Source: a virus. From it: a stretch of 64,000 nucleotides of DNA. The stretch lies in the IMG/VR virus record IMGVR_UViG_3300045988_167643. One strand, written 5' to 3'. How positions within the stretch are numbered: position 1 is the first letter of the stretch; each line of letters opens with the position of its first letter. The position numbers were made by a program, and so were the translations under genes. Below the pieces are notes generated by a model, which did no database searches, was not told the origin of the DNA, and saw only the letters and a list, made by a program, of their open reading frames with translations. Below are positions 31,113 to 49,627 of this stretch, in pieces.

Positions 31113-31295
31113 TCCACCTGGATGACCGCAAAAGTGATATTTGCCTTTTATAAAAAGCCAATCAAAATATTCTTTTACATCCTGTGGAGAAAGTGATACT
31201 TTACTATAAAAACTACTTATTTCTTTGCCATTATGGTATTCTATAATTTTATAATTACCTATTATAAATGTATGATCAAAAATTTTAACATGCAT
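31098..31295 (-). CDS. small protein, family B (MHxKIFD...), convergent and overlapping with Ntn-hydrolase gene
   Basis: The start was refined to MHVKIFDHTF (RBS AAAAGGAC). Its 3' end overlaps 30570..31112 by 15 nt. It shares FxWLFIxxK...GxxGG with 31321..31512 and MHxKIFD with 41853..42053 and 44726..44935. Confidence 0.6.
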   Translation of the reverse strand: MHVKIFDHTFIIGNYKIIEYHNGKEISSFYSKVSLSPQDVKEYFDWLFIKGKYHFCGHPGGLFGL

Positions 31296-31320
31296 AATTA
31301 GTCCTTTTATTACATAAAAA

Positions 31321-31512
31321 TTAACATATTGTTCCACCATGTGCTGTTCCAATAAATTTATCATTAATAAATAACCATTCAATAAAATTATTTACATCAG
31401 TTGGATTTATTCCATTGCAGCATGACATACCACCAACATATTTTTCGTTTTCATATAAACGTATAGATGTATTATTTATTTTTAGCTTAAAATTAAAAAA
31501 ACTTACTTCCAT
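31321..31512 (-). CDS. small protein, family B paralogue
   Basis: RBS AGAGGTAATAATTATG. FIEWLFINDKFIGTAHGG aligns with YFDWLFIKGKYHFCGHPGG in the neighbouring gene. Confidence 0.6.
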   Translation of the reverse strand: MEVSFFNFKLKINNTSIRLYENEKYVGGMSCCNGINPTDVNNFIEWLFINDKFIGTAHGGTIC

Positions 31513-34500: not shown

Positions 34501-37500
34501 TATATACCTTAGTAGATTTTTTTACCTTTTCAGTATTGTCATTTACGGTGTCTGTATTTTTCTTAACAGAAATTGTATTTTTATCGGTAATTGTGGAATT
34601 AGAGGGAGATGACTGATTACCTTTATTTAAACCAAAGCTATTGCCACCACCTTTTGGTGATCCGTCTAAGAATGCACTCATTCCACTATGAACCGTTCCA
34701 CCAGCAAGTGCTCTAGCATGTCCACCTCCAGACATGACACGTCCTGAATTTATAAGTTCAGATGTTTGTTTTGAATTAAAGATAATATCGCCCTTTTTTA
34801 AATTCTCAAAATGAGCACCACCAGGAATTACCATCCATTTTCCGTCACGTACAATTGACTCCGGACCATCAGGAAGCTCATTTACAAGAGCTTTTTCATT
34901 ACTTTGTAATGCTACGTTTCCATCTGCATGAGCAGGAGAGTAGTTAAGAACATTATAAGCTGTACCAGAAGCGTGTGCTACACGGAGCATAGTACCAGAA
35001 GCAAATCCACCACCAGTTCCACCAGAATTATTTTTAACATTTGTAGTTACATTTGCGGTGACATTAACTGAATGTGGTTTGTTTAATTCAGCTTGTATTG
35101 TGCTTACCATAGAAGAAATATTTGCACCAACATTGATATTCGCAGTCTTATTATTAATTTCTTCTACTGCTGCATTAGCCGCTGAAATTGCAGGTCCTTT
35201 ATTACCATCAATTTTCATTTCAGGCTTTTGATTTTCTGCGTATTTTTTAGCTTCATCAACACTTTTTTTGTATGGAGTATTATTCCCATCAATAGGTATA
35301 CTTGATTGTTCAGTTGCTTGTGATTGTAAATTCTTTGCACTGACTGAAACTGAAAGAGATGGGTTAGAAGATTGCAATTTAGAAACAGTGGAATTAATAA
35401 GACTTAAAGTCTGACGAGATGTATTGTCAAGATTTACACTAACTGTTATCTTTTGAGTATCCTTTGGAAGACCTGCAATTTTATCAAGAAATGCATTTGC
35501 ATCCTCTTCATTATCAATATTAAAATGATATGTTAACTGCTGAATACCATCATCAAAAGCACTTAAATCAAGTTTATTAATTGCATCTTGAATTCCTGCA
35601 TCATCTAGTCCTTGAATATCAAACTTCAGAGTCTTTTTAGTCTCATCATCAATGCTATCCAACTCTGCTTTTGCATCATTTACGGCTTTTTGAGCATCAG
35701 ATGTATCTAATCCAAGAGATTTCTGCTTATCTAACTCGTTAACAGCTGTTTGGTAATTTTGAATTGCCGTAATAGCATTTTGAAGATCTGCATTAACACT
35801 ATTTAACTGATCATCTGAAATATTCATTACAGCAGGAGCTTCTAACTCTTGTTTTCTTTCTATAAGAGTCTTTAAAATTGTTTCAGCAGCTGAAATTTTA
35901 TCTGTGTTGACATCAATATCAGAACTCTCTCTAAGACCTTGCAAATACTTTGAAAGATCAGATATTTCACTATCCAGATCATCCCCTGTTGCGGAAAGAT
36001 TTATTTCAACATCTGGTTCTATAGTGTCGATCTGTTCTTCCAACGAGGTAATATTACCATCAACATCAATAATAAGATGATAATCTTTTGCAAAAGAGTC
36101 TAATTGCTTTTGAAGCACTTCTTTTAACTGGACATCATCTGTATTATTGATATCATCTATCATTGTCTTGGCAACAGATTTAGCATAATCTGTCTGCTCT
36201 TTAGTATATTTACCTTTCTTATCAACAAGCTCATCCATGTTGGCATTTGCATTTTTGATCCGCTCTTCGAATTCTGCAATTTTCCTTTCAGATTCAGAGA
36301 GAGCAGTATCATAGTCCTCGGTGTTCGGATTTGCTTTTATCTGAGCAAGATGCATTTTTTCAGCTGCTAATTTACTATATAAGTCAGAAATTTTCTCCGT
36401 ACCGGCTTCTTCAGTTGTAAAGAAATCATTATAGAAACCATAGTCTTCAAGTTTTCCGAAAACAGACATAAGAGGTTCAAACCCAATTCCAAGTTTGTCT
36501 GCAGTTTCTTTAAGCTCCTCCATATTATTTCCAAGAGAATAAGTCCAGTTACCATTTTCTTGTTCGGCCAATCCAAGAGCCTGAAGATCATTAAGGAAAT
36601 TGATACATCCATCAGAACCTTCAGTAAAATATTTCTCGATCTTTGACATATTTTCTGCAAAATTTGCATAGTCATCTGATCCAGTAGGAGAGAACATTGC
36701 GGCTGTGGTCTTGAAATCATCCGTTCCAACCAAACCTTTTTCATATGCTTCTTTAGCAGTATTATACATGGAAAGCATATCATCATAGGTCGCTCCTCCA
36801 TTCTCAGTAGAAGAAGCATCTTTTGCAGCTTCATATTGTGGAGTTGGAATTTTTAAACCAGCAATTTTTTTATATGCTCCCTCAATGTCGTGAGCACCGG
36901 CAATTACATCATCGACATATTTTTGAAGAGCATCTGCGTTTGCATCTTCACCGGCATCTCGTAAAGCCTCTATAGCATCTGTAAACTGGTTAGTTACATC
37001 ACTGTCCATAGAATCCATCAGATCATCAATAGCAGAAGAGAGGTCTTCTGTATTTCCTGCATATTTTGCAAGATCTGGGAATTTATCCAGGAATGTCTTT
37101 CTTGTAGAACCAGTCATAAGACCGTTCTTTAGATCTTTTTGAGCTTGATAGAGTGACTGATATTTATCCTGATAATCTGTGAGCTGGGATTGGATTGTTT
37201 CATTATTAATAAAATCTGCTGTAGTTGGAAGAAAATTCTGAATTTCTTTTCCCCAATCGAATCCAGTAGAAGTGATATTTCCAATATTCTGTTCGACCGC
37301 TTTAAGCATTGCTTGGGCGCCTGTGTCAGATGTCATATAGCTTGAATAAGAATTGATAAATCCTTTTGCCATATTTTCTGCAACTGTCTGTGGCGCAGAG
37401 CTATAAGCATTTTTGAACAGTTTTTCTATTTCCTGCTTCGCTGTAGCAGCATCAATATCAGACAAATCAGCTTCTTTCAGAATGCTTCCTTTAAGAGCTT

Positions 37501-39685
37501 TAGCATATTCCATCTCTTCTTTAGAAGCACCAACCATCGCATCATCTATTTTTTTTATACTATCTGTTACTTTAGATACTTTGAGGTTTGAAATAGATTT
37601 CTGTAAATCGTCTGTACCAGAAGCTAGTTGTGGAAACTGTTGAATAAGGTCAGTGAGATCTGAATCTTTAAACTCGCCTGTTTTAAGCTTTGTAAGAGTA
37701 TCTGATAAAGAAGAAATATCTGACTGCAAAGAATCAATAGAAGATGAGATTTCATTATCAGAATCGCCAAGAATTGATGAGAGAGTAGGACCATCTGTGG
37801 ATTCTGCTACCGTTTTCTTATATCTTTCAATGGCAGAAACTAATCCATCTGTGCCTTTCTCAATATCAACTGAACCATTATCAATTAACTGTGCAGCAAT
37901 TGACAGATCGCCTGTCTGCATCTGGTCAATAAAATCACTGGCATTTGGAAAATCTGCATATGCTTCTTTAAGACGTTCTGCGTTATCTTCCATGTCCTCA
38001 ATAGATGAATCAATACCATAAGCATTCTTGAACCGCTCCTGGAGTTCTTTCTTTTCCTCTGTGTCATTTCCAAAAGCATCTTTAAATGCTTCATCAACTT
38101 GCGACCTGTATTCATCAATAGTTAATTTAGAAGGATCAATTTGTAGTGCTTTTGCAAGACTTTCTTGTACATCCGTACTAAACTGAGACATTGGCCCAAG
38201 AAATTCACCATACAGAAAATCAAGTACCTGTCCTTTATATTCACCATCAGGATCATTTAATGCAGTTAAATCAAGATTTGAAATATTAGCCAGAAATGCA
38301 CTCTGAAGACTATCATCAAGCTCATTAAATGATTTTGATGTCTGAAGATAATTTCCAAGTGATTGAGCCATGCTACGCCATTGATCTTCAATCATTAAGT
38401 CATAGGAATTAATTTCGCTCTGAAGTTGACTTCTCTGAGATTCCAATGTTAAATAATAGGATTCCATACCAGCTGTAATCTGTTCATTCATCCTATCTAT
38501 TTCTTGTTTTGACTTGTCAGCAAGACCTTCAGCATAGAAATTCCAGATGCTTCCGTCATCACCAGTATTCTCTTTGTATAATCCGTTCTCTTTTAGAACA
38601 TCAGTAATAACATTTTCTTTATCGCCATACAAATTCTGAACTTCAAAATTGTTACTTCCATATGTTAAAATACTACGTTTGTTCTCAGAAATATCAATAT
38701 CTAGTTGAGCTAGTTCATCACGTTTTTTCTGAATATCTTCCGCATATTGACTTGTCTGTGTAACAACACCATCATATGTTGCTTGTAGATTTTTCCCCAT
38801 ATCAACATTTGCAGAAGAAACTTGTGCCTCATATAAGTTACGAATACTATCAGCAGCCTTATCTGCATTGGAAGCAAGGTTTAATACAGCATTTCCCTGA
38901 CTATCGTAACCTGCTACCAGACCAGGAAACTGAGAGGCAAGCTTACTACTGAGATCAATATATTGCTGATACTCGTCTGTAGATAATGATACATTCTCGT
39001 TTGTATTCTGATTTACTCCCTTACGAAGCTCTACATATTTTTCGGCAACTTGATCGATTGCATCACCGGTATTTTTTATTTGTTCTGTCTGATCACCGAA
39101 TGAAGATCCAAGGTCCATGATGGACTGCTTACCTTCTTCGAAGCTTTTGAATGTGCTGTCAATAGAATCCTTTGCTTCCTGTCCAGCTTTGATGATATTT
39201 TCGCTACGATGTCTATAATCATCTATGGCTTCAAATACTTTGCCAATAGCCCAGGATGCAGCCATAGCTATTGCCATATTGCCAAGAGTTCCAACAAATG
39301 TCTTTGCGACATTACCTGCGGTTTTTAAAGCAGCGCCAAATTTTGTTGTACCTTGTATAACTGTTTGCTGAGATTGAGCAAAATTGGCTAAATTTTGAGA
39401 TCCTAATTCTGTATTAGAATTATATTCAATTAATTTATTATTGCCTTCATCTAACTCATTAGCCCATGTTGAAGCCAGATTTTTATATTCATCACTTGAT
39501 AAATCAGCTTCTTTTGGAATATCGTTAATTAATCTTTTAAAATATTCTTGCTCATTATTGGTTGGATTATAATTTTTAACAACATCTTGCTTCTTTGTAA
39601 AAAAGTCTTTAATACTTTCCCAAAATTCAGATAAATTCTTTCCATTATTAAATGTACCCTCAGTTTTATCGTAGTTAAAAATCAA
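31577..39685 (-). CDS. tape-measure protein, distal 2702-aa segment (no credible own start)
   Basis: The frame opens only 5 codons upstream. The sole start candidate is TTG with no SD (AAATAGATTATTTCAATTTG). It contains a post-core hydrophobic segment (FGAALKTAGNVAKTFVGTLGNMAIAMAASWAIG), kilobases of coiled coil, and two ...NE(L/N)...GPE/GME-type motifs (ALVNELPDGPESIV; RVNENGMESVL). Confidence 0.85.
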   Translation of the reverse strand: MIFNYDKTEGTFNNGKNLSEFWESIKDFFTKKQDVVKNYNPTNNEQEYFKRLINDIPKEADLSSDEYKNLASTWANELDEGNNKLIEYNSNTELGSQNLANFAQSQQTVIQGTTKFGAALKTAGNVAKTFVGTLGNMAIAMAASWAIGKVFEAIDDYRHRSENIIKAGQEAKDSIDSTFKSFEEGKQSIMDLGSSFGDQTEQIKNTGDAIDQVAEKYVELRKGVNQNTNENVSLSTDEYQQYIDLSSKLASQFPGLVAGYDSQGNAVLNLASNADKAADSIRNLYEAQVSSANVDMGKNLQATYDGVVTQTSQYAEDIQKKRDELAQLDIDISENKRSILTYGSNNFEVQNLYGDKENVITDVLKENGLYKENTGDDGSIWNFYAEGLADKSKQEIDRMNEQITAGMESYYLTLESQRSQLQSEINSYDLMIEDQWRSMAQSLGNYLQTSKSFNELDDSLQSAFLANISNLDLTALNDPDGEYKGQVLDFLYGEFLGPMSQFSTDVQESLAKALQIDPSKLTIDEYRSQVDEAFKDAFGNDTEEKKELQERFKNAYGIDSSIEDMEDNAERLKEAYADFPNASDFIDQMQTGDLSIAAQLIDNGSVDIEKGTDGLVSAIERYKKTVAESTDGPTLSSILGDSDNEISSSIDSLQSDISSLSDTLTKLKTGEFKDSDLTDLIQQFPQLASGTDDLQKSISNLKVSKVTDSIKKIDDAMVGASKEEMEYAKALKGSILKEADLSDIDAATAKQEIEKLFKNAYSSAPQTVAENMAKGFINSYSSYMTSDTGAQAMLKAVEQNIGNITSTGFDWGKEIQNFLPTTADFINNETIQSQLTDYQDKYQSLYQAQKDLKNGLMTGSTRKTFLDKFPDLAKYAGNTEDLSSAIDDLMDSMDSDVTNQFTDAIEALRDAGEDANADALQKYVDDVIAGAHDIEGAYKKIAGLKIPTPQYEAAKDASSTENGGATYDDMLSMYNTAKEAYEKGLVGTDDFKTTAAMFSPTGSDDYANFAENMSKIEKYFTEGSDGCINFLNDLQALGLAEQENGNWTYSLGNNMEELKETADKLGIGFEPLMSVFGKLEDYGFYNDFFTTEEAGTEKISDLYSKLAAEKMHLAQIKANPNTEDYDTALSESERKIAEFEERIKNANANMDELVDKKGKYTKEQTDYAKSVAKTMIDDINNTDDVQLKEVLQKQLDSFAKDYHLIIDVDGNITSLEEQIDTIEPDVEINLSATGDDLDSEISDLSKYLQGLRESSDIDVNTDKISAAETILKTLIERKQELEAPAVMNISDDQLNSVNADLQNAITAIQNYQTAVNELDKQKSLGLDTSDAQKAVNDAKAELDSIDDETKKTLKFDIQGLDDAGIQDAINKLDLSAFDDGIQQLTYHFNIDNEEDANAFLDKIAGLPKDTQKITVSVNLDNTSRQTLSLINSTVSKLQSSNPSLSVSVSAKNLQSQATEQSSIPIDGNNTPYKKSVDEAKKYAENQKPEMKIDGNKGPAISAANAAVEEINNKTANINVGANISSMVSTIQAELNKPHSVNVTANVTTNVKNNSGGTGGGFASGTMLRVAHASGTAYNVLNYSPAHADGNVALQSNEKALVNELPDGPESIVRDGKWMVIPGGAHFENLKKGDIIFNSKQTSELINSGRVMSGGGHARALAGGTVHSGMSAFLDGSPKGGGNSFGLNKGNQSSPSNSTITDKNTISVKKNTDTVNDNTEKVKKSTKVYNWVETRIKHWSDQVQKIADKITDYIKKSLKTSLLKQQIRKMNYEIGSNQKGAKTYMKKANSIANEYTYYNSDGEEIKTNVPKKYQKLVQKGAYRIEDMDTSTDQGKALAEAIDQYKTYYDKAQDCKQAVVDLKKEQMELFEQWANMPTETAEQKLERLQNGFNGLNATQSRLSAVQTGGSTQKAIADAATASYESAQVVTEKAQSNLDTATAKADKATTAVNRKKKALLKSKGLTNEQKKAIKSGKTIDTSKITNKTTKKRAEEYNSAVKNKKKADSKKKTAQTKFNTANKNSSSLKTDAETAIAGYQEGNELSYMDSLTDQNVTQTKQAADINNKAWEETKKNLNAQEKAKKQADDKVSKKAKAIKKKFGSKLSDNQKKKLAAGKEINVDKIKDKSLKKALTAYNKYVTTAAETEQKLNIVTDAESTAAANAAESQTEAAKATVEAIQSKFDNAKTYYEGLLGYQEKYNEMEEANIDLYNAHGNYERSSDYEIKISNTESLRNIAQDKVDELEKRLQEGVDNGTIVEGSQEWINMKSEIIEAKKAVTDYDTSIENLKQQQIGVYYEEQFDRAIEKIDQFKDRLDTLNEIISDDMKVDKNTGLLTELGATSVMLNRNQFSANQKEIQKLLEKENDVKKRYANGEDMSSEFGEKTYDEYIKDIQSKYNSLISSNSSLQNDMLSLVKNQAQAELDALNKVISKRKEALSAKKDYYDYDKTLKDKTKDIQILERQAAALQGSTNAEDKARLAKIQEQLSDAREDLSDTMTDHAFSMQSDALDKLSSDMSDDFDKWSNDISSNVEKMSKAINEAVSNSALSNAQVLNNLSTILKNVGLTDEQVSSTLSGLTGYASGTDYVPKSGMYRVNENGMESVLSRKYGTLTFLNQGDKIFTADFTKRLIDNAGIATQSSQPQFGEMYKELMNAITNTNNQSYEHSTVYNIVVNEATDANAVGDIVVKKIDAYEKKRVRDFKSLR
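39664..39678. repeat. 15-nt inverted-repeat arm (TTTTATCGTAGTTAA) inside first codons of distal TMP segment
   Basis: It is the perfect reverse complement of 47220..47234. The RNA duplex is extendable to 17 bp with one G-U. Confidence 0.9.
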
Positions 39686-39692
39686 ATTGAAA
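39685..39692. repeat. 8-bp direct repeat AATTGAAA (island left junction)
   Basis: Identical to 47240..47247. Both copies read xT-TTC-AAT-Tx (Phe-Asn) in the same codon phase on the minus strand. Confidence 0.85.
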
Positions 39693-39747
39693 TAATCTAT
39701 TTATAATGTTATACTTGCAATATAAAATTATAAATTGGAGGGTGATT

Positions 39748-40275
39748 ATGAAGATTTATTGCTGTCGTAATTGTATGGAGAAAAACAGAAGCAAGATTAA
39801 AAGCGACAAAGATTATTTTAACTCATTACTTAAATATAAAACCTTTGAAGCAGAAAAAGAATATTTTGTAGGATTTGGACTAGAAAACAAAGTTAAAGAC
39901 GGTAAATGTATATTTTGCAACTCTCCAGTAGAACTTTTAAATATTGAGGATGGTGAATTGGCAAAAATATCACACTTTGGATCTCCAAATCCAGATTATG
40001 TTCTTGCTATGAATAAACTTAAAGGCGATGATATTATTTCATTTACTTCAAAATATAATGAATTAATTGAGATTCAAAATCAAAGAAAAGCAATGAATTT
40101 AGCGCAACAACAGTCCGAGCAACAAAATATAAACCAAGTACGTTGTCCTAAATGTGGATCTACCCAGATCACCACAGGACAGAGAGGATACAGTTTATTC
40201 TCTGGCTTTTTAGGTAGCAGCAAGACCGTTAATCGTTGTGCGGCTTGTGGACATACTTGGAAGCCTGGAAGGTGA
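39748..40275 (+). CDS. double zinc-ribbon protein (Zn-ribbon cassette copy 1 in frame)
   Basis: RBS GGAGGGTGATTATG. The N-terminus has CCRNC...CIFC. The C-terminus is [40 protein letters not shown]. Confidence 0.75.
40135..40275 (+). repeat. 141-nt Zn-ribbon cassette, copy 1 (in frame)
   Basis: It has the same length and the same [13 protein letters not shown]...NRCAxCG pattern as 41186..41326, 43280..43420 and 44153..44293. Confidence 0.9.
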
Positions 40276-40485
40276 CTATAAATAGTTCTTTCGATCATCA
40301 AGAATATCAAACAGTTCTTGAATGTTTTTTTCAAATTCTATAAAGCTTAGATACTTTTGATGATTGAATATTCTATAGTATGCTTTTTGGATTTTAAATT
40401 TTATATTGCGAATTGCCATTTTTGCATCCAAATAAAAAACATTTACTCTTAATTTTAGAAGTAATAAAGTTTTATTTTGTTTCAT
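40276..40485 (-). CDS. small protein, family C (~69 aa), divergent partner of HExxH gene
   Basis: RBS GAAAGGA. It shares K(K/A)YY(R/K)IF(N/D)xxKY...EK(D/N)(I/M)Q(E/D)...D(D/E)R with 42104..42316 and 42344..42550. Confidence 0.65.
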   Translation of the reverse strand: MKQNKTLLLLKLRVNVFYLDAKMAIRNIKFKIQKAYYRIFNHQKYLSFIEFEKNIQELFDILDDRKNYL

Positions 40486-40518
40486 ATAAATAAAATCCTT
40501 TCGTATAAGTAAATAAAT

Positions 40519-41202
40519 ATGAATAAAGAATATATAGAAAATTTATTTAAAGAATACAATAATAATTATTTTAAAATACCAGAAATACAGCAATATATCG
40601 AAATACAAGATAATTATGTAGCTGGTAAATTTAATAGTGTAGATTTATACAATCAAATATATACATTAGAAATAAGTAATAATTTAAATGAGTCTGATGG
40701 AAGCAAAGCAATATTATTCCATGAATTTACTCATGTATATGATTCGTTACAATTTCTAAAATATCCATTTGAAGATTACAAAAAATTAATGTATGTATAT
40801 TCGGAAGTACATGCTTCTGAAGTAGAAATGGATGTGTATTTAAAAATATCAAACTTTCATTATGAAAAATATATGCAATTACAATTAAGAGACCTAATAG
40901 AAAGCTTTATTTTGCCAGATGGTCCTATTGTCAAAGGACAGCTAGGATTTAATGAAAGACTTCTATATTATTACATTGGTTATCTTGTATCATTAAATAA
41001 TCATAATATTAAGTATGAATATAAATATGATTATATTAATGAAGATTTTCAAAATCTGTTTATGGAAATTACAGATTACTTTATTCAAAACAATACATAT
41101 AATTATGATATCTTATTAACTTACTATGATAGATTGAGTAAACTTGTAAAAGATACATTAATAAAACATCAAAAAAAATACAAATCAAGTTCGTTGCCCT
41201 AA
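40519..41202 (+). CDS. HExxH metallopeptidase-like protein, copy 1
   Basis: Contains [12 protein letters not shown] (HExxH) and [11 protein letters not shown]. It is roughly half-identical by eye to 42580..43266. It ends 17 nt into the +1-frame Zn-ribbon cassette. Confidence 0.65.
41171..41178 (+). repeat. A8 homopolymer at HExxH/Zn-ribbon junction
   Basis: The sequence reads CATC-AAAAAAAA-TAC. Loss of one A fuses the HExxH ORF to the Zn-ribbon (…[16 protein letters not shown]…). Confidence 0.9.
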
Positions 41203-41326
41203 ATGCGGTTCCACACAAATCACCACAGGTCAACGTGGATACTCATTATTCTCTGGTTTCCTTGGCTCAAATAAGACAGTCAACAGATGTGCGAATTGCG
41301 GATATTCTTGGAAACCTGGAAAATAA
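41186..41326 (+). other. Zn-ribbon cassette copy 2, +1 frame relative to upstream ORF, no own start codon
   Basis: It encodes [46 protein letters not shown]. Against copy 1, 22 codons differ synonymously and 5 non-synonymously. Its frame opens at 41165 with no ATG, GTG or TTG. Confidence 0.8.
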
Positions 41327-41338
41327 GGAGAGTATAAT

Positions 41339-41890
41339 ATGAGTATTATACTGGCTGCTATTTCAAAAAATAATGATATTGCTGTATGCTCCGATGGAAG
41401 AGCAACTGATAGTAATGGAAAAGTTGTAGGAGAGTATGAGCAAAAAATATATAAAATTAATAAGAAATGTATAATTGGTGGGACTGGAACTGCTGCTAAA
41501 TATCTAAAATTAAAAGATTATGTTAAAGATAATTTTTCATCAGACCAATACAATGTGAATCAAATCCACGACTCATGCATTAAGTATTTAGAAAAAAATA
41601 AATCTGACGAATCAGATGTACATATTCTTATTACTGGGTATGATGAAGAATGTAATCCACACTTGTATGTAATATCTGTATCCAGTACTATTTCATCTCG
41701 CGATTACAATGATATAAAAAGAACTATATTAGGCGATGTATTTTGCAATTATATACTTAATGAAACCGAAGATGACATCAATAAAATTTTAGATTCCATG
41801 GAAGAATGCATTATTAATAGAGCAATGTTTCATTTTTTAATTAACAAAAATGTTAGTAAATTGCATCTTTTGGCAAAGGATGTTCGATGA
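41339..41890 (+). CDS. HslV/CodW-like Ntn-hydrolase homologue, copy 2
   Basis: RBS AAGGAGAG. The N-terminus MSIILAAISKNNDIAVCSDGRATDSNGKVVGEYEQKIYKINKKCIIGGTGTA follows the HslV pattern. It is a paralogue of 30570..31112. Confidence 0.55.
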   Translation: MSIILAAISKNNDIAVCSDGRATDSNGKVVGEYEQKIYKINKKCIIGGTGTAAKYLKLKDYVKDNFSSDQYNVNQIHDSCIKYLEKNKSDESDVHILITGYDEECNPHLYVISVSSTISSRDYNDIKRTILGDVFCNYILNETEDDINKILDSMEECIINRAMFHFLINKNVSKLHLLAKDVR

Positions 41891-42053
41891 GTCTTTTTTC
41901 AGGAACAAAAAATGATTCAATAGTTTCTTTTACTACAATTGGTTTAAGTGGAATATATTTATTACAAGTGACTGATTCTTGTCCATCGTTATCAGATACT
42001 GATATTTTGTGCGAATCAATAAATATGTCACAATCAAAAATTTTAGCATGCAT
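41853..42053 (-). CDS. small protein, family B, convergent and overlapping with Ntn-hydrolase gene
   Basis: The start was refined to MHAKIFDCDIFIDSHK (RBS AGAAGGT). It overlaps 41339..41890 by 38 nt. Its 5' 53 nt are about 92% identical to 44883..44935. Confidence 0.6.
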   Translation of the reverse strand: MHAKIFDCDIFIDSHKISVSDNDGQESVTCNKYIPLKPIVVKETIESFFVPEKRLIEHPLPKDAIY

Positions 42054-42103
42054 TGTCATACCTTCTTTCTATATATTGTAGAATAAGTGGAACAAGTAAA
42101 TAA

Positions 42104-42316
42104 CTATAATCTATTCATACGTTCATCGTATTCATTAAATATTTCTTTGATGTCTTTTTCGAATGCACAAAGTTTTTCGTATTTGGAATAATTGAAAATT
42201 TTATAGTATGCCTTTTTTACCTGTAAAATGAAATTTTTCTTTTTCATATTTAAAGAAAGTAATAATGCGTCTATTTTTAAGAGTATTAATGAATGCTGTT
42301 TTATTTGTTTTTTCAT
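42104..42316 (-). CDS. small protein, family C paralogue
   Basis: The start was refined to MKKQIKQ (RBS AAAGGA). It carries the family C motif KKAYYKIFNYSKY...EKDIKEIF...DER. Confidence 0.6.
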   Translation of the reverse strand: MKKQIKQHSLILLKIDALLLSLNMKKKNFILQVKKAYYKIFNYSKYEKLCAFEKDIKEIFNEYDERMNRL

Positions 42317-42343
42317 AGAACATCCTTTCATAAGAAAAGTAAT

Positions 42344-42550
42344 TTACACCCATTTCATTCTGTCGTCAATAGCATCCAGGACATCTTGCATATCTTTTTC
42401 TATCTGCAGGAGGTCCTGGTACTTTTGATTATCAAAAATGCGATAATACTTTTTTTGAATTGCAAATTTTATATCTAATTTTAGATTTTTTAATTTTATG
42501 AACAGTATATCACGTTTTAATCTAATAATTAGCATTTTGTTTTTTATCAT
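42344..42550 (-). CDS. small protein, family C paralogue, divergent partner of HExxH gene
   Basis: RBS GAAAGGAATTATTATG. Only 29 nt separate it from the divergent 42580 start. Confidence 0.65.
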   Translation of the reverse strand: MIKNKMLIIRLKRDILFIKLKNLKLDIKFAIQKKYYRIFDNQKYQDLLQIEKDMQDVLDAIDDRMKWV

Positions 42551-42579
42551 AATAATTCCTTTCTATTGCAGGAGATAAA

Positions 42580-43266
42580 ATGGACAAAGAGTATCTTGAT
42601 AAAATATTTAAGGAATATAATGAGTTATATTATGAAATTCCAGAAATACAAGAATATATTGAAGTTGACAAAGGAGATTGTGCAGCCGCACAATTCAATA
42701 CATTGGAATTGTATAATCAAAAATATATACTAAAAGTCAACAAGCAATTAGATAAATCAAAAATATACAAAGGAATTTTCTTTCACGAGTTCACACATGT
42801 ATATGATTCTACTCAGTTATTAAATTATCCGCTTGAAAATTTTATTAAATTAATGTACATATATTCTGAAGTTCACGCTTCAGAAGTTGAAATGGATATA
42901 CATTTAAAAATAGAAAATTTCTCATATAAAAAATATGTAGATAAAGGAATAGTAAATTTAACTGAGAGTTTTATATTACCAAATAATCCTATTTTAAAAG
43001 GTGAGGTATATTGTGACGAAAGACTTTTATATTATTGTATTGGATATTTGACATCACTTAAAAAGCATAATATCGAATATGTTTATAGTTATAAGTATGT
43101 ACCAGATGTGTTTCGTTCATTATTTATAGAGATAACGGAATATTTTTTGTCAACAACAAAATATAATTATAATGTATTGCTTAATTATCAAATTAAATTA
43201 CATGATTTAGTCAAGACTACAATAAAGGAACATATAGAAAAATATAATAAACCTAATACAAATTAA
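42580..43266 (+). CDS. HExxH metallopeptidase-like protein, copy 2
   Basis: RBS GCAGGAGATAAAATG. Contains [12 protein letters not shown] and [11 protein letters not shown]. Confidence 0.65.
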   Translation: MDKEYLDKIFKEYNELYYEIPEIQEYIEVDKGDCAAAQFNTLELYNQKYILKVNKQLDKSKIYKGIFFHEFTHVYDSTQLLNYPLENFIKLMYIYSEVHASEVEMDIHLKIENFSYKKYVDKGIVNLTESFILPNNPILKGEVYCDERLLYYCIGYLTSLKKHNIEYVYSYKYVPDVFRSLFIEITEYFLSTTKYNYNVLLNYQIKLHDLVKTTIKEHIEKYNKPNTN

Positions 43267-43279
43267 TACAAAAACCAAT

Positions 43280-43420
43280 ACTGTTCACTGTCCTCGCTGC
43301 GGTAGCACACAGATCACTACAGGGCAGAGAGGTTATTCCTTTTTAACTGGTTTCTTAGGTTCCAATAAAGCTGTTAATAGATGCGCAAAATGTGGACATA
43401 CTTTGGAACCGAGAGGGTAA
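43280..43420 (+). other. Zn-ribbon cassette copy 3, +1 frame relative to upstream ORF, no own start codon
   Basis: It encodes [46 protein letters not shown]. Its frame is open from 43238 without a start codon. The junction contains the tandem AATACAAA-tt-AATACAAA. Confidence 0.75.
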
Positions 43421-43421
43421 T

Positions 43422-43691
43422 TTATTTAATACCATGTTCTTCCAAAAACTCATCAGCTATTTGACTAGAAACTTGTTTTATAATTTGAGTAAGATTACCA
43501 TGAACGTCAATTTCCGGCATCTTACCAGTTGTTTCGAATTTAATAATGTCATCAATTGACATATTCTTAAAATGATTTCGCACTAATGTAAATGTGGTTT
43601 CAATATCACCTTCATCAGTACAATTATTTTCGTATAACAATTTAATAATTTTTGTTGCAATATTTTCTGTCTCAGAAATTGACCACAACAT
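43422..43691 (-). CDS. hypothetical 89-aa acidic protein, divergent partner of 43723..44154
   Basis: RBS AGAAAGGTCGTG. Its start lies 31 nt from the divergent gene's start. Confidence 0.6.
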   Translation of the reverse strand: MLWSISETENIATKIIKLLYENNCTDEGDIETTFTLVRNHFKNMSIDDIIKFETTGKMPEIDVHGNLTQIIKQVSSQIADEFLEEHGIK

Positions 43692-43722
43692 ATTTTCACG
43701 ACCTTTCTATGGAGGATTGAAT

Positions 43723-44154
43723 ATGATATTAAACTATGATTGTTTTAGAGATGTACTCTTATATATTGAAGAACAAGATAATATGAAGCTTAATGGAGAT
43801 TTCAAGCGGATTATGTTAAAAGATATAAAGGATCACTTTTCAGGCAAATACACTGAAGAGGATGTACAATATTGTGTGAAAAACTTATTTGACGGAAGAT
43901 TCTTAGAAGGATTGTATTCTATAGATGATAACTATAAATATGAAAACTGTAAAATTTATGATGTTACATTCGAAGGACATAAATTAGCAGAATCAATTAG
44001 ACCTGACTCTATATGGAGGAAGAGTAAAGCTAAATTAAAATCTGTAGGTATTTCTTCTATAAATATGATCTCAGCAGTATGTGTAGAAGTTGCTAAAGTA
44101 GCTGTTACTGATCCTAAATTTATTACCGATATTGCCAATGGAATATTTAAATAA
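43723..44154 (+). CDS. DUF2513-like (winged-helix-like) protein
   Basis: RBS GGAGGATTGAATATG. The N-terminus MILNYDCFRDVLLYIEEQ...F resembles the remembered DUF2513 family. The track start at 43594 lies inside the divergent gene. Confidence 0.5.
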   Translation: MILNYDCFRDVLLYIEEQDNMKLNGDFKRIMLKDIKDHFSGKYTEEDVQYCVKNLFDGRFLEGLYSIDDNYKYENCKIYDVTFEGHKLAESIRPDSIWRKSKAKLKSVGISSINMISAVCVEVAKVAVTDPKFITDIANGIFK

Positions 44155-44293
44155 AGTTCACTGTCCTCGCTGTGGCTCAACGCAAATTACCACAGGTCAA
44201 ACCTTGCAAAGAGCATTGTTTAGCTTAATGTATAATCAGATTACTGTCAATCGATGCGCAAATTGTGGGTGCACTTGGAGACAAGGAATATAA
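44138..44293 (+). CDS. Zn-ribbon cassette copy 4 as possible 51-aa stand-alone ORF (+1 frame, overlaps upstream stop)
   Basis: An ATG at 44138 lies in the cassette frame but has no SD. It encodes [51 protein letters not shown]. The central loop has diverged. Confidence 0.45.
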   Translation: MEYLNKVHCPRCGSTQITTGQTLQRALFSLMYNQITVNRCANCGCTWRQGI

Positions 44294-44466: not shown

Positions 44467-44607
44467 TACATTTTTTTAAAAAATCTATTGTTTTTATATA
44501 TGGCGTAAAGAAAAGTTCAATAGCATGGGGAAATGGATCTGGAACTTCTCTAAACAATTCTATATCTTTTATTTTTAAATCTTCTGTGTCATTAGGAGGT
44601 GTATTTA

Positions 44608-44808
44608 GTGAACTCAAATTTCGATTCAAAAGAATCATTCCTTTCTTATAAGTTAAATATTTTTAAAGAATTGTATAATGATGAATGTGAAAGAAGAAAC
44701 ATTGCTTCACAAAAAATTTCAAGAATTATTCCATTAATTGTGGCAATGTTTGGTGGTGACACCAATATTTTTCAAAAGCTTTTTCTGGCAACAGATAATC
44801 CTCTATGA
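44608..44808 (+). CDS. 66-aa ORF, possibly a truncated N-terminal fragment
   Basis: A GTG lies 8 nt after AGGAGG. It ends inside the convergent gene 44726..44935, in the position the Ntn-hydrolase gene occupies in the paralogous module. Confidence 0.35.
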   Translation: MNSNFDSKESFLSYKLNIFKELYNDECERRNIASQKISRIIPLIVAMFGGDTNIFQKLFLATDNPL

Positions 44809-44935
44809 CTTCCTTGACAAAGAAAGTAGGCAAGGGAGTATTAAAAGATTTTTCACTAGATCCACCACGAGAATCGTTTATTGATATTTTGTGTGAATCA
44901 ATAAATATGTCGCAATCAAAAATTTTTACATGCAT
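44726..44935 (-). CDS. small protein, family B paralogue
   Basis: The start was refined to MHVKIFDCDIFIDSHK (RBS GAAGGTGAAG). Confidence 0.6.
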   Translation of the reverse strand: MHVKIFDCDIFIDSHKISINDSRGGSSEKSFNTPLPTFFVKEVIEDYLLPEKAFEKYWCHHQTLPQLME

Positions 44936-44983
44936 AAAAATCTTCACCTTCTTTTTTTATTTAATTAATAGACCAAGAGAGTA

Positions 44984-45331
44984 TTAGTGCTCTTGGTCTG
45001 ATTCTTCATGCTTGGTCCATGCTAATGTATAAGTTTTTAACCAAAAGTAATCTTTACCGAAATCACCATCAGACCGATATATATCAAATTCATTTATATT
45101 ATAAATACCTAATGTCTCATACATGGCATCACGGTATGTCTTATAAGATCCAAGAACCTTATTATCATCTTTTCTTATTACTAGATAACAATCTCCGTAT
45201 TTTTCAAATAATTCTTTCTCGTGGTCTGTAAAATAGCAGTGGGCTTTACCATCTCGATCTGTTGACATATTAGTATAATTAAAGAAATCTTTATCTTCAA
45301 ATATAACAGTTCCTCTTTGTATTAATTTCAT
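44984..45331 (-). CDS. small protein, family A paralogue
   Basis: RBS AAAGGAGT. FEKYGDCYLVIRKDDNKVLGSYKTYRDAMYETL aligns with the family A members. Confidence 0.65.
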   Translation of the reverse strand: MKLIQRGTVIFEDKDFFNYTNMSTDRDGKAHCYFTDHEKELFEKYGDCYLVIRKDDNKVLGSYKTYRDAMYETLGIYNINEFDIYRSDGDFGKDYFWLKTYTLAWTKHEESDQEH

Positions 45332-45375
45332 TTAATAATACTCCTTTTTAATCATAATAATAGACCAGGAGAGTG

Positions 45376-45846
45376 TTAATTCTCCTGGTCTAAATTATCA
45401 TATTCATTTAAGAAATTTGCTGTTCCAAAAGATGGGATTCTAAATGAAAAACTTGTTTTTCCATTTAAATTTGATACTGCAAAATCACCTTTTGAAATAA
45501 TATCCATACCAATAATAATATCAAAAACATCATGTTTTTCAATTTTTAATACTCGCAAGTTATTAAAAACAAAATCGTCTCTAAACATTAAATCAATTGA
45601 ATAAATATTTGTTAATTTTGACTCACGATGACCTCCAGTATAGAAATTTGATTTTCCAGTTGAAGTAAGATTATATTTTTCCACTATATTGCTTGTTATA
45701 CATGAGACAGAAGCACCTGTGTCCCAAATACAAATAAAGCGATTTTTATCAATTAAATCATCTTTCTCTTTTCCTACATAAACATAGGAAGTAAGTTGAT
45801 TCATTATCTTATTTGAACTATATGTAAGAACTCGTATTTTATCCAT
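45376..45846 (-). CDS. retropepsin-like aspartic protease, copy 2
   Basis: Contains IWDTGASVSCIT, IIGMDIISKGDFAVSN and FSFRIPS. Its start lies 4 nt after the upstream family A gene's stop. Confidence 0.75.
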   Translation of the reverse strand: MDKIRVLTYSSNKIMNQLTSYVYVGKEKDDLIDKNRFICIWDTGASVSCITSNIVEKYNLTSTGKSNFYTGGHRESKLTNIYSIDLMFRDDFVFNNLRVLKIEKHDVFDIIIGMDIISKGDFAVSNLNGKTSFSFRIPSFGTANFLNEYDNLDQEN

Positions 45847-45849
45847 ATC

Positions 45850-46140
45850 TTATTCACTTATAGAAATCCATTTATATTCTGGTATGCGAACATATTTTCT
45901 ATTAAAAACACCATCACAATGATATATATTAAATTCACCTACATCATAATAGAAAAGTGTTTCTCTTAATGCTTCTCTATATGTTTTATATGATCCAATG
46001 ATAATATTATCTAATTTTCTAATAGACAGATAACATTCTCCATATTTTTTATATAATTCTTCATGATGATAATAAAACCAATCTGTAGGATGATTTGGAA
46101 TTTCTACAATTTCCCCTTCATAATAATGTATTTTTCCCAT
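45850..46140 (-). CDS. small protein, family A paralogue
   Basis: The start was refined to MGKIHYYEG after AAGAGGTG. Contains YKKYGECYLSIRKLDNIIIGSYKTYREALRETL. Confidence 0.65.
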   Translation of the reverse strand: MGKIHYYEGEIVEIPNHPTDWFYYHHEELYKKYGECYLSIRKLDNIIIGSYKTYREALRETLFYYDVGEFNIYHCDGVFNRKYVRIPEYKWISISE

Positions 46141-46187
46141 ATTAAATTTCACCTCTTATCATATCATATAATGGATTAATTTCAATC

Positions 46188-47219: not shown

Positions 47220-47234
47220 TTAACTACGATAAAA
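47220..47234. repeat. 15-nt inverted-repeat arm (TTAACTACGATAAAA) at island right end
   Basis: It is the reverse complement of 39664..39678. It supplies the codons FYRS* that terminate the proximal TMP segment. Confidence 0.9.
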
Positions 47235-48053
47235 TTTTGAATTGAAACTAGCTTTATGGTTTATGTTAAGCTGTTTACCCAGACCTGCTTGTGAAAGTTT
47301 AAATCCTGCGAATCCTCCAATTGCTGTTGAGAGCAGTGGAAGTTTATCCAGGATCTGAGTTACGATGTTAAGAAAGGCGGTTGCTGTATCTATTACGCCT
47401 TTAAACATATCTGAGTTGATAGTTACTGTTGCAAGCTCTTGGAGCTGTGTTTGGAGCTTTGTGATATGAGCTTCTAACGAAGATAAATACGTCTCATTTT
47501 CACGATCTGCCGAGCCTTTCGCATTTTTTGATGACTCGATTGCTTCCCTTAAAATATCAGGTGACTGCAATATACTAGCAGCTGTATTTGCGCGGTTTTT
47601 GCCGGCAATTGTTTCAAGCAAAAGATTTACATTGTTACTTTTGGTCTTTTTATCGGTTTCTTCGATCTCATTATAGATATCTGCTATATCCTGTAATACA
47701 CTTGCCGTTGAACGGTAGTTCCCGTTATTATCAAGAATATCTATACCTTTAAAACCATTAGAAGCGACTTTTGTTGCGCTCATAATTACGTCTCTAAGCT
47801 TAGAAACAGTTGTTACAACACCATCTGTCTCTTCGCCAAGTTCTTGCAATTGCTGAACGGCAACGCTTGTTCCTGTTAGACGGAGAGCAATCGTTCTCAT
47901 TGCGGCACCAACGGATTCTGGGTCCTGCACAACCTGGTTGCCTGCCGTAATTAATCCTATACTTTCGTCTATATTATTACCTGCTGTTTTAAGAGCAGAT
48001 GCTGATCTTTGTAATGCTGATGCTAACCCATCGGTGGAGATGGAAAAATTATT
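47220..48053 (-). CDS. tape-measure protein, middle segment (exon 2 of intron-split TP901-type core)
   Basis: It begins NNFSISTDGLASALQRSASALKTAGNNIDESIGLITAGNQVVQDPESVGAAMRTIALRLTG, the hallmark TP901-family core block as remembered from Firmicutes phage TMPs. The track codons MVSRACLESNSL upstream belong to the intron 3' end. Confidence 0.85.
   Translation of the reverse strand, partial: NNFSISTDGLASALQRSASALKTAGNNIDESIGLITAGNQVVQDPESVGAAMRTIALRLTGTSVAVQQLQELGEETDGVVTTVSKLRDVIMSATKVASNGFKGIDILDNNGNYRSTASVLQDIADIYNEIEETDKKTKSNNVNLLLETIAGKNRANTAASILQSPDILREAIESSKNAKGSADRENETYLSSLEAHITKLQTQLQELATVTINSDMFKGVIDTATAFLNIVTQILDKLPLLSTAIGGFAGFKLSQAGLGKQLNINHKASFNSKFYRS
47240..47247. repeat. 8-bp direct repeat AATTGAAA (island right junction)
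   Basis: Identical to 39685..39692 and in the same codon phase. Confidence 0.85.
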
Positions 48054-49627
48054 CAAACTGTTACTTTCGAGACAAGCTCTACTAACCACACAAAATTAGT
48101 ATGGCGCATAGGCATTTCTACCTATGTCTCACGCTTTATATGAATTGGGATTATAACGTGACGATTATACTTAAAAGTATAAAAGAGCCTTTCGGCTGTT
48201 CGGACTAGATCTTCATCCTATAAAATAGGAGAGTAGCGAAACTCTATTTGTTTATTATCCAAATAGAGTATTATGGTCTCTACGGATATATGTAATTAAT
48301 TATTTTATAATATATGTATATTCTTTTCTGTTTAAATCTTGATATGGGGTAATTATATTAGAATTTAAAGAAAGACTAGATTCTGAAATACTATAATTAA
48401 AAGAATGATAATTATTTAATACACCATTACAATTTATATATTCTTGAATTAATTTTTTACATAATTCTTCGTTTTTATTTATATCAGTTTCCCACAAATA
48501 TAAAATTTTTATATCATATTTATTGGTAATATATGATTTCTTTTGCTTATCTTTTATAATTGTTCTGTCTTGTATTGAATTCAAAGTATATTTATTTTCA
48601 TTGTATCTTATTGGGTTACCATGCCAATAATCGCCCATAACCTCTATTATTAAATTAAAATCATTTAAATAATTATCAGCAGCATAATATTCAAATATTT
48701 TCTCGCGTTCATAATTAATCTTTAATTCATCTAATATAGAATTTATTTTTAACTGAATTTTAGAATTTCTTTTATTTGAACGAGCGCTATTTTGGGCAAT
48801 TCTAAGACGTATTTTTTCTTTTTGTTCTGGCGTAAATTTTTTATTAAACATGGGGGATTTTTCTTGAATATAATGTTTAGATTTGAATTCATAATAACAT
48901 TGTCTGGAGCAATAATTGAAATTTTCTCCAAATGAATTGACTTTATTATAATTAGATGGAATAATTGCAAGAGGTTTACCACAATTAGTGCAAAACGTAT
49001 TTATTCTATTATAAAATTGACTTTCCTTACCATGGTCTAATTTATTTGGTTTATCTTTATGATAACATTCATTAGAACAATACGAATGTTTATTTACTAA
49101 ATAAACACTTGGAAAATCTTCAATTTCTTGTCCACAATATTCACAATTGGTTTTTACTAATATTTTTCTACTATGATTCCCTAATTGCTGAACCATTTTA
49201 CAAATATCTTTTAGCGATCTATTCTTATACATACTTTGCAAGGTGTTCAAATAAGGATCGTCTGTTGTTAATAAAAAAGATAATGCTGTTTTTACATCTT
49301 CCTTAGTCCATCCATCAATATTAGGAACAATATTTTTATGACGTTTTAACCAATCACAATAGGCACACGTTCCATTATTTCCATTTTCTTTTAAATTTCT
49401 AATTCTAATAAATCTCTTTTCTAAATTTCTTCCACACACATCACAATGGACTATATGATTCAATGGAATACTATCATATTTTTCTTTACTTCGCATAAAA
49501 CCTCTTTAAATTAATTACATATCTTTCCACGGTCTTGGCTTTCCCATAAGCTATTAACCGTTATAGCTACTTACAGGGAATATAAAAATTCCCCACATGT
49601 TACCATGTGTTTAGGCATAATCATTTC
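48054..49627 (-). mobile_element. group I intron (1574 nt) in the tape-measure gene
   Basis: P1 pairs exon UAGGU (49632-49628) with intron GCCUA (49616-49612), with a U-G wobble at the splice site. P10 pairs intron AUUAU (49621-49617) with 3'-exon AUAAU (48052-48048). The intron ends in G (48054). An S-like element GAAGAUCUAGUCCGAAC lies at 48201-48217. The spliced junction reads VNQVG|NNFSIS. Confidence 0.8.
48300..49496 (-). CDS. intron-encoded homing endonuclease, Zn-finger N-terminal half + PD-(D/E)XK (Vsr/EDxHD-like) C-terminal domain
   Basis: It has multiple CxxC pairs (CDVCGR, CAYCDW, CEYCGQ, CTNCGK). The C-terminus has LIIEVMGDYWHGNP...D..KD...KILYLWE, a Vsr/DUF559-like pattern. It lies wholly within the intron. 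Confidence 0.7.
   Translation of the reverse strand: MRSKEKYDSIPLNHIVHCDVCGRNLEKRFIRIRNLKENGNNGTCAYCDWLKRHKNIVPNIDGWTKEDVKTALSFLLTTDDPYLNTLQSMYKNRSLKDICKMVQQLGNHSRKILVKTNCEYCGQEIEDFPSVYLVNKHSYCSNECYHKDKPNKLDHGKESQFYNRINTFCTNCGKPLAIIPSNYNKVNSFGENFNYCSRQCYYEFKSKHYIQEKSPMFNKKFTPEQKEKIRLRIAQNSARSNKRNSKIQLKINSILDELKINYEREKIFEYYAADNYLNDFNLIIEVMGDYWHGNPIRYNENKYTLNSIQDRTIIKDKQKKSYITNKYDIKILYLWETDINKNEELCKKLIQEYINCNGVLNNYHSFNYSISESSLSLNSNIITPYQDLNRKEYTYIIK

Follow-up and report, generated by a model that had tools for sequence, protein, structure and literature searches.

Divergent gene pairs of a predicted HExxH metallopeptidase and a small basic protein in an accessory island of a gut phage

Introduction

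Within a 64,000-nucleotide (nt) stretch of viral DNA (IMG/VR record IMGVR_UViG_3300045988_167643; the whole stretch is called the window here), the region between positions 40276 and 43266 carries two divergent gene pairs. Each consists of a small gene on the minus strand, designated famC, and a larger gene on the plus strand whose product contains an HExxH motif and is designated HExxH. The HExxH proteins form a new, unannotated family of predicted zincin-fold metallopeptidases, probably of the gluzincin type, and famC is confirmed as a real gene family. The head-to-head arrangement of the two genes is found far beyond chance, and we tentatively read the pair, with somewhat less than even confidence, as an effector peptidase and its cognate neutraliser. 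Repeats coding for a Zn-ribbon lie around the pairs, and from their sequence they are best read as homology arms for the gain, loss, and exchange of gene cassettes, with the downstream copies as leftover arms or scars, some of them decaying.

The two gene pairs

The genes and spacers that make up the pairs are as follows.

40276-40485, minus strand: famC1, 69 amino acids (aa), isoelectric point (pI) 9.8, cognate partner of HExxH1; the stop codons of famC1 and of the gene carrying Zn-ribbon copy w1 are adjacent
40486-40518: spacer between famC1 and HExxH1, 33 nt, holding CCTTTC, the Shine-Dalgarno sequence of famC1 on the minus strand
40519-41202, plus strand: HExxH1, 227 aa, predicted metallopeptidase of zincin fold
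42104-42316, minus strand: famC2, 70 aa, an orphan in the window
42344-42550, minus strand: famC3, 68 aa, cognate partner of HExxH2
42551-42579: spacer between famC3 and HExxH2, 29 nt, with two back-to-back Shine-Dalgarno sequences (TTCCTTTC and GCAGGAG), kept in the related loci L001 and L090-93
42580-43266, plus strand: HExxH2, 228 aa, paralogue of HExxH1

A preliminary description of this DNA had reported the five open reading frames (ORFs), the start-to-start gaps of 33 and 29 nt, and the motifs of both HExxH copies, and all of these are correct; the extra family C copy that it noted is present as famC2. HExxH1 and HExxH2 share 54% identity, the three famC copies share ∼40% identity in pairwise comparisons, and the DNA repeat families D2 and D4 coincide with the duplicated pairs. 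The two pairs are true paralogues.

HExxH proteins as predicted zincin metallopeptidases

A word-indexed homologue search recovered just five relatives of the HExxH proteins, and an exhaustive profile search was needed to define the family. This identified 167 cluster representatives, mostly of 230-260 aa, and the HExxH motif is kept in 135 of the 150 representatives listed. Forms of 227 and 228 aa are common, with 82 and 134 member sequences, respectively. Five residues (H68, E69, H72, D75, and E96) are invariant in an alignment of 86 sequences, and a further seven columns (T71, Y94, S95, H98, A99, Y151, and G154) are conserved in at least 90% of them.

Structure prediction with AlphaFold2 depended on the depth of the alignment: four sequences gave a predicted local distance difference test (pLDDT) score of only 38, and the 86-sequence alignment gave a pLDDT of 95.9 with a predicted template modelling (TM) score of 0.92. 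The model comprises an N-terminal helix, a small sheet, a helix carrying the HExxH motif (residues 60-78), an antiparallel helix (84-107) that carries E96, and a helical C-terminal half. E96, which lies on this next helix 24 residues past H72, is the candidate third ligand; alternatives are the invariant D75 and the highly conserved H98. When the model was compared with the Protein Data Bank (PDB) using Foldseek, the top matches were all gluzincins of families M1 and M2 (IRAP, LTA4H, and ACE), with weak scores (E 0.2-2, query-normalised TM score 0.35-0.42). In the BFVD database, full-length matches were to phage proteins named ‘Lethal factor’ (TM 0.74) and ‘Peptidase’ (TM 0.68). Invariant residues, confident model, and weak gluzincin matches together support the metalloprotease-type signature and fold around HExxH that the preliminary description had proposed to check.

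Known families are approached only remotely. Weak Pfam matches among the 86 members were to Peptidase_M76 (21 members), SprT-like (20, best E = 1.4e-6), PhageMetallopep (6), and YgjP-like (3). For the window proteins, HExxH1 reached 15.5 bits against Peptidase_M76, compared with a gathering cut-off of 25.2 (E = 0.016), and HExxH2 had no match. Neither protein falls into a family in PHROGs, NCBIfam, or PADLOC, and no PDB chain matches HExxH or famC at the sequence level.

A conserved small partner in a head-to-head layout

The famC family comprises 70 protein clusters of 57-89 aa among 5.8 billion proteins, all of them unannotated. The proteins are basic (pI ∼9.7) and split into three sub-families, famC1, famC2, and famC3. 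Orthologue comparisons at synonymous distances (dS) of 0.5-1.2 give ratios of nonsynonymous to synonymous change (omega) of 0.09-0.2, which indicates purifying selection. The preliminary description had held that its proposal would fall if these ORFs were not conserved in homologous regions; they are conserved there.

Profiles of both families were run with local hmmsearch over all related loci that were fetched; viral and metagenome contigs were also scanned with degenerate patterns for the two families, which yielded at least a few loci. Nearly every famC gene has an HExxH gene beside it in divergent orientation at a distance of 15-34 nt, in about 20 loci (L001-L005, L006, L008/9, L016, L021, L066/67, L088-93, L096-98, and L115/116). 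Three cognate sub-lineages can be distinguished, in which famC1 accompanies HExxH1, famC3 accompanies HExxH2, and famC2 accompanies an HExxH protein of 231-233 aa that is its own partner in L021, L096-98, and L115. In more distant HExxH clades (26-37% identity), famC is absent and its place is taken by other small divergent ORFs of 48-100 aa, mostly of pI 9-10.6, at 16-32 nt. Of 26 distinct HExxH genes, 16 have a small divergent ORF at 0-40 nt, compared with 13 of 362 genes taken from these loci as background (Fisher p = 3e-14, for related sequences that are not fully independent), and several of the 10 HExxH genes scored as misses are artefacts of ORF start calling.

What is conserved in the spacer is two back-to-back ribosome binding sites (RBS) only: CCTTTC, which reads GAAAGG on the minus strand and serves famC, and AGGAG, which serves HExxH. 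In L004 the start codons of the two genes even overlap. There is no room for promoters in such a spacer, so each mRNA must start inside or beyond the partner gene, as the preliminary description had argued in part when it placed the promoters within the partner’s coding sequence. It follows that the 5′ regions of the two mRNAs are complementary, and expression of famC and HExxH would be reciprocal. Convergent genes in the region end 0-2 nt apart, with no terminator between them.

The two genes of a pair differ in how they are lost. The famC2 gene of the window is an orphan. A minus-strand gene run in L015 contains famC3 and famC2 and no HExxH gene, and this type of context corresponds to 89-aa, N-terminally extended protein calls that make up about 25 of the 70 famC clusters (one of these proteins, P0199, is found on 102 contigs). 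In L100-102, which come from three different samples, a frameshifted HExxH gene lies beside an intact famC2. Among the related loci of the famC-linked clades, no HExxH gene was found without famC. That famC outlives HExxH, with the reverse never seen, is the pattern expected of a potentially harmful large gene and a small gene that protects against it.

On the reading that we tentatively prefer, HExxH would therefore be a potentially harmful effector peptidase, acting in host takeover or in phage-phage conflict. Its neutralisation by famC could take the form of repression or antisense-coupled regulation of the HExxH gene, or of direct inhibition of the protein, and the complementary 5′ ends of the two mRNAs would cause the two genes to be expressed reciprocally. 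The data fit either form of neutralisation; the basic pI of famC and the divergent arrangement lean towards a repressor or antisense-coupled regulator, as against a protein inhibitor. A broader proposal, possible but rather doubtful, is that HExxH and famC form a new family of phage effector-immunity pairs. Orphan famC genes would then confer resistance to the peptidases of relatives, the repertoire would be diversified by cassette exchange at the Zn-ribbon arms, and occasional in-frame joins would generate peptidase-Zn-ribbon fusions.

Zn-ribbon repeats as putative recombination arms

A direct repeat of ∼150 nt (repeat family D1) is present in four copies in the window and encodes a Zn-ribbon containing NRCAxCG.

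39706-40275, plus strand: gene of copy w1, encoding a Cys-rich N-domain and an in-frame C-terminal Zn-ribbon (core 40144-40260); likely start ATG at 39748, after GGAGG
41165-41326, plus strand: w2, start-less, in the +1 frame relative to HExxH1, with a run of eight A (A8) at the junction (41171-41178)
43238-43420, plus strand: w3, start-less, in the +1 frame relative to HExxH2; a conserved Trp is replaced by Leu, and a breakpoint lies at ∼43300-43320
44138-44293, plus strand: w4, a 51-aa ORF with its own ATG, in the +1 frame, overlapping the stop codon of the DUF2513 gene; a divergent loop variant

The copy w1 alone is in frame, as the C-terminus of its protein; w2, w3, and w4 are all in the +1 frame, and w2 and w3 contain no ATG, GTG, or TTG. 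The preliminary description had the HExxH proteins followed by a Zn-ribbon, but neither HExxH ORF includes it: the Zn-ribbon sequence is shifted to the +1 frame, runs across the HExxH stop codon or follows it, and lacks a start codon. Genes of the w1 type were found in 41 loci, always with an in-frame Zn-ribbon, and are the resident gene of every related island. The resident protein (∼180 aa) consists of an N-domain with CCRxC...CxxC, a conserved motif, a Q/E-rich linker, and the Zn-ribbon, and has no family assignment; its gene is always the divergent neighbour of a giant gene of 2700-3000 aa.

Across the loci counted, 97 Zn-ribbon occurrences comprise 82 in-frame C-terminal domains on several unrelated N-domains, 9 start-less copies, and a few free-standing ORFs of ∼51-88 aa. 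In-frame HExxH-linker-Zn-ribbon fusions are found in other sub-clades (P0026, P0064, P0071, P0084, and a 304-aa protein of L006/L092). Some free-standing ORFs (77-88 aa; L085 6001-6234 and L116 1329-1592) have their own ATG and a conserved Q/E-rich N-terminal linker (QLNDRDNQAK...), and they follow unrelated genes, namely a membrane protein gene in L085 and a 246-aa HExxH paralogue in L116.

Several comparisons place recombination breakpoints at these repeats. Between the window and L092, HExxH2 is 98-100% identical at the DNA level (dS 0.016), and identity falls to ∼75% within the Zn-ribbon (from ∼43300) and within famC3. The loci L088/89 correspond to the window less the segment from w2 to w3. 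The core of w2 is 94-97% DNA-identical to the functional in-frame Zn-ribbon of 182-189-aa proteins in L008-L010. In an alignment of five sequences, the Zn-ribbon body found at position 1 in the window is that of position 2 in L088 and vice versa, and the flanks are position-specific. Crossovers on either side of the repeat body would yield this pattern, and the two arrangements are the product pair expected when a cassette of Zn-ribbon, famC1, and HExxH1 recombines, on one or the other side of that body, into a resident Zn-ribbon like that of L010. Downstream copies also decay: L088/89 have gained a T, the L001 copy carries two stop codons and is frameshifted at its C-terminus, P0013 and P0017 have lost a ligand by Cys to Tyr replacement, and w3 shows the Trp to Leu change. 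In L066/67 a different Zn-ribbon variant, in the -1 frame, follows the same HExxH2 junction.

Between Zn-ribbon copies, the proportion of synonymous differences (pS) is 0.7-0.9, which is saturated, and that of nonsynonymous differences (pN) is 0.1-0.2. The apparent selection on start-less copies is explained by their recent recombination with functional copies. Programmed +1 frameshifting was considered as the main account of these values and was rejected on the mosaic breakpoints, the 94-97% identity, the swapped bodies, and the decay seen in orthologues. In L001, the reading frame is not recovered even if translation bypasses both stop codons.

Junctions and short repeats were also noted elsewhere. 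In the close relative L005 (3812-4441 onward), the first two thirds of HExxH1 match the window copy exactly, after which the gene diverges into a 209-aa ORF, and this divergence point is a recombination junction inside the peptidase gene. The 209-aa ORF joins a nucleotide-metabolism module (DNA ligase OB domain, nucleoside deoxyribosyltransferase, NrdD/NrdG, dUTPase, ThyA, and DHFR). A 57-nt repeat, D5 (41997-42053 and 44879-44935, 91% identity), encodes the N-terminus (KIFDCDIFIDSHKIS) of two diverged small minus-strand paralogues and may be another recombination patch.

Weighing the explanations

Several points weigh against an effector and its neutraliser. The fold matches are weak, so the catalytic competence of HExxH would have to be predicted from the conserved residues alone. 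No family or fold match to famC was detected in Pfam, PHROGs, NCBIfam, PADLOC, or PDB sequences. The small partners of the other HExxH clades have no detectable homology to famC (hhalign probability 0.2, with scores within the range of control ORFs), and some of these partner ORFs may be spurious. HExxH1 has lost its Shine-Dalgarno sequence, with no clear one in the 33-nt spacer, and a promoter scan of the region gave 64 sites compared with 53.5 expected, which is not above background. Toxin-antitoxin (TA) modules and protease-inhibitor pairs are usually co-transcribed, and here the genes are divergent. Co-inheritance within a mobile cassette is expected anyway, so co-diversification is weak evidence, and the breakpoint inside famC3 means that pairing is not strict at the allele level. 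The toxin/antitoxin- or regulator-type coupling suggested in the preliminary description stands in part: orphan famC genes, decay of HExxH, and cognate sub-lineages fit it, and the divergent arrangement in place of one operon does not.

The strongest competing account is linkage alone: famC and HExxH would be independent accessory genes that share a mobile cassette in a genome densely coded on both strands. On this account famC, which is oriented like the tail genes, could be expressed late with a role of its own. We consider this unlikely, although minus-strand ORFs do fill every gap between plus-strand genes of the island, the L015 run with famC3 and famC2 and no HExxH represents a common context, famC3 contains a breakpoint where HExxH2 is near-identical, and famC has no homology to any regulator or inhibitor family. 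Linkage does not readily account for a head-to-head layout at 15-34 nt that recurs with different partners across HExxH clades at 26-37% identity, for the three cognate sub-lineages, or for the one-sided losses, in which famC is seen without HExxH and HExxH never without famC in the famC-linked clades. A Spartan-like role, in which HExxH and a Zn-ribbon (in cis or in trans) would act on DNA-bound proteins in replication with famC as a basic DNA-binding cofactor, appears improbable. SprT-like is one of the two commonest weak Pfam matches in the family, and the basic pI of famC would suit DNA binding. However, the window proteins have no match to SprT-like (PF10263) at E ≤ 0.1, BFVD models of SprT-like proteins match at noise level (E 0.8-2.6, TM 0.2-0.3), Glu96, placed much as in gluzincins, is the invariant residue downstream and a third His as in HExxHx(n)H is missing nearby, and the Zn-ribbon is detached in the window and common to many unrelated N-domains. 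The SprT/Wss1-like affinity suggested in the preliminary description thus reduces to a remote resemblance and not membership.

Recoding would have the start-less Zn-ribbons translated as C-terminal extensions of HExxH, by +1 (or -2) frameshifting or by transcriptional slippage at A-runs, and we regard it as very improbable. A-runs do occur at the junctions (A8 at 41171-41178 and A5 at 43238-43242), all three detached copies of the window are in the +1 frame, as are independent junctions in L037 and L116, and in-frame HExxH-Zn-ribbon fusions are a natural architecture. The high pS relative to pN also fits, and the 227- and 228-aa forms occur in too many sequences for an assembly error to explain the frame offset. 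Against this, recent recombination with functional copies explains the selection signature, the junctions are not conserved between copies or lineages and share no slippery motif, the -1 copy of L066/67 occupies the same HExxH2 junction, the L001 copy has two in-frame stops and the L088/89 orthologue an internal frameshift, and five +1 compared with one -1 junctions are not significant. Hardly credible is a switch of lysogeny or antirepression of the ImmA/ImmR kind, in which HExxH would cleave famC as a repressor. It draws on a general analogy only, that of an HExxH protease beside a small gene of regulator size. Peptidase_M78/ImmA gave no match in the window proteins and was not among the top families of the 86 members, BFVD models of IrrE-like domains match at noise level (E 0.8-1.5, TM 0.28), and famC has no helix-turn-helix (HTH) signature, Xre-type or other, and no other Pfam match. 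Moreover, the pairs occur as two or three paralogues amid structural genes, famC occurs without HExxH, and the genes are divergent, unlike immR/immA. The ImmA/IrrE-like alternative of the preliminary description is not supported.

The accessory island and its neighbours

The window is a segment of a phage genome with a G + C content of 30-37% and contains no tRNA genes. The source is an uncultivated phage of gut Firmicutes. Neither DNA nor protein of the region matched GenBank phages, and GTDB representative genomes gave no match. Relatives are contigs of 100-220 kb from human-gut viromes and metagenomes; one sits in a metagenome-assembled genome of Lachnospiraceae, and one famC homologue comes from the assembly of a Ruminococcus isolate. 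The minus strand carries the tail genes, including giant ORFs of 2702, 2423, and 1681 aa. Tail genes, the border of the island, and the remaining features of interest are listed below.

8928-12665, minus strand: tail fibre with Gp34_trimer and Peptidase_S74 domains
29522-30478, minus strand: DUF6558 tail protein
31577-39685, minus strand: 2702-aa gene, left border of the island
39687-39715, plus strand: sigma-70-like promoter match, by consensus only, the best in the region (TTGAAA-17-TATACT with TG); could drive the plus-strand genes
41339-41890, plus strand: proteasome/HslV-like protein, 183 aa, N-terminus MSIILAA; cassette cargo between w2 and w3
41853-42059, minus strand: 68-aa ORF, convergent with the proteasome-like gene and overlapping it; paralogue of 44726-44947
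43422-43691, minus strand: 89-aa acidic protein, head-to-head with the DUF2513 gene
43714-44154, plus strand: DUF2513 protein, 146 aa (Pfam E = 1.9e-15; phrog_585)
47220-48089, minus strand: PhageMin_Tail protein

Both gene pairs are located inside a low-G + C island (27%, lower than its surroundings) between the 2702-aa gene and a retropepsin-like gene. Its genes alternate between the strands, non-coding DNA is almost nil, and a minus-strand ORF occupies every gap that separates the plus-strand genes. The cassettes follow a common grammar of Zn-ribbon repeat, small minus-strand gene, larger plus-strand gene, and Zn-ribbon repeat. The island is a hypervariable accessory (moron-like) insertion between tail transcription units; the pairs had been assigned to a phage tail operon in the preliminary description, and they lie outside the tail operon proper. 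Scans for promoters and terminators gave no useful signal in this AT-rich DNA. The layout of the pairs is repeated, as had been noticed, by the 89-aa gene and the DUF2513 gene, which are separated by 22 nt (43692-43713) and recur as a pair in L008, L010, L015, L088, and L093.

Three types of peptidase are encoded in the island: HExxH, proteasome-like, and retropepsin-like. A second proteasome/HslV-like gene (30558-31112, plus strand; Pfam Proteasome E = 1.6e-8) is inserted in the minus-strand tail operon, where a small minus-strand ORF (31098-31382) converges on and overlaps it, in the same layout as 41339-41890 and 41853-42059. The proteasome-like proteins of the window (41339-41890) and of L093 (4615-5157) start with MS[IL][IV][IL]AA, so that the nucleophile after removal of Met would be Ser, where it is usually Thr. 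The retropepsin-like aspartic protease (45376-45846, minus strand; DTGAS motif, Asp_protease_2 E = 2e-7) is flanked by paralogous genes of 100 and 115 aa (44984-46152), and this trio is kept beside the island in L015, L085, L087, L088, and L090. Closely similar GC-rich hairpins (repeat D6; 44950-45009 and 45342-45401) follow the 115-aa gene and the protease gene.

Gene decay and mobile elements were also noted. The plus-strand ORF at 44599-44808 (69 aa) is a truncated remnant of a predicted membrane protein of 185-187 aa, which is intact in L085 (5414-5971) and L015 (5323-5886); this remnant, too, points to decay of cassettes within the island. An IstA/IstB pair of the IS21 family lies directly after the island in L001-L003 (L001 9432-11764) and disrupts a homologue of the 115-aa gene. 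In L096 a LAGLIDADG homing endonuclease gene (275-955) lies beside the PhageMin_Tail gene.

Comparison with known systems

The HExxH proteins resemble the gluzincins of clan MA(E), which include thermolysin, M1 peptidases, ACE, and anthrax lethal factor, in having an HExxH helix and an invariant Glu 24 residues after the second His, in the next helix of the model; the same HExxH-to-Glu spacing is found in ACE. They differ in their small size, in an all-helical C-terminal half, and in an extra invariant Asp (HExxHxxD). With SprT-like proteins and Atp23 (PF10263 and PF09768) they share weak profile similarity at the HExxH helix in about a quarter of members. HExxHxxD resembles HELIHAFD of Atp23, and relatives whose Zn-ribbon is fused in frame at the C-terminus are built like bacterial SprT, in which the protease is followed by a C-terminal Zn-ribbon. 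In the window, by contrast, the candidate third ligand is Glu and not His, and the Zn-ribbon is detached and of a different type. ImmA/IrrE (M78) systems with Xre regulators likewise place, within a mobile element, a zincin with HExxH and Glu next to a small gene; immR and immA are transcribed together. The pairs described here differ from these in orientation and in their several copies in a structural region, the partner is not an HTH protein, and no profile or fold similarity was found.

As a system, the pairs are most readily compared with type II TA modules and with toxin-immunity loci that have orphan immunity genes: cognate pairs, a small partner that outlives the large one, and location in a variable island are common to them. 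Unlike type II TA genes, famC and HExxH are divergent across a spacer of 29-33 nt and not in one operon, and famC has no known antitoxin or immunity fold. The repeats recall phage mosaicism at conserved linkers and the orphan arrays of contact-dependent inhibition (CDI) and Rhs systems, where a coding repeat also flanks variable cassettes and coincides with breakpoints. Orphan modules of CDI and Rhs loci lack start codons, as the downstream Zn-ribbon copies do. The conserved element here, in contrast, is the 3′ end of the gene, coding for the C-terminal domain, so recombination adds or deletes whole cassettes and does not swap toxin tips. Genes with programmed +1 frameshifts (prfB; cps and tsh of Listeria phage PSA) differ from the Zn-ribbon junctions, which have no conserved shift site and a downstream frame that is not maintained.

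PADLOC gave no match for famC or HExxH, and its sole match, to the retropepsin-like neighbour, was weak (E = 0.002). No family was found in Rfam, and no literature was found on DUF2513 or on the famC/HExxH/Zn-ribbon architecture.

Implications

The kinds of element involved are known ones (a peptidase of the zincin type, an accessory island, and conserved sequences as sites of mosaic recombination), and nothing here is categorically new. What is new are the two protein families, whose functions we infer, the head-to-head module with only RBS between the genes across a peptidase family, and the use of a C-terminal-domain repeat as a homology arm for cassettes. For annotators there is a warning, in that a start-less ORF fragment recently copied from a functional gene mimics purifying selection and can be mistaken for programmed frameshifting. 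The repeats themselves provide a nucleotide-level record of a domain-coding sequence that appears to serve as a recombination arm in the turnover of accessory cassettes. The analysis defines two unannotated families in abundant human-gut phages, a zincin family of 167 clusters with a fold model and a five-residue signature and a family of small partners of 70 clusters, and it supplies a testable hypothesis for them, that of a peptidase effector which may be held in check by its cognate neutraliser.

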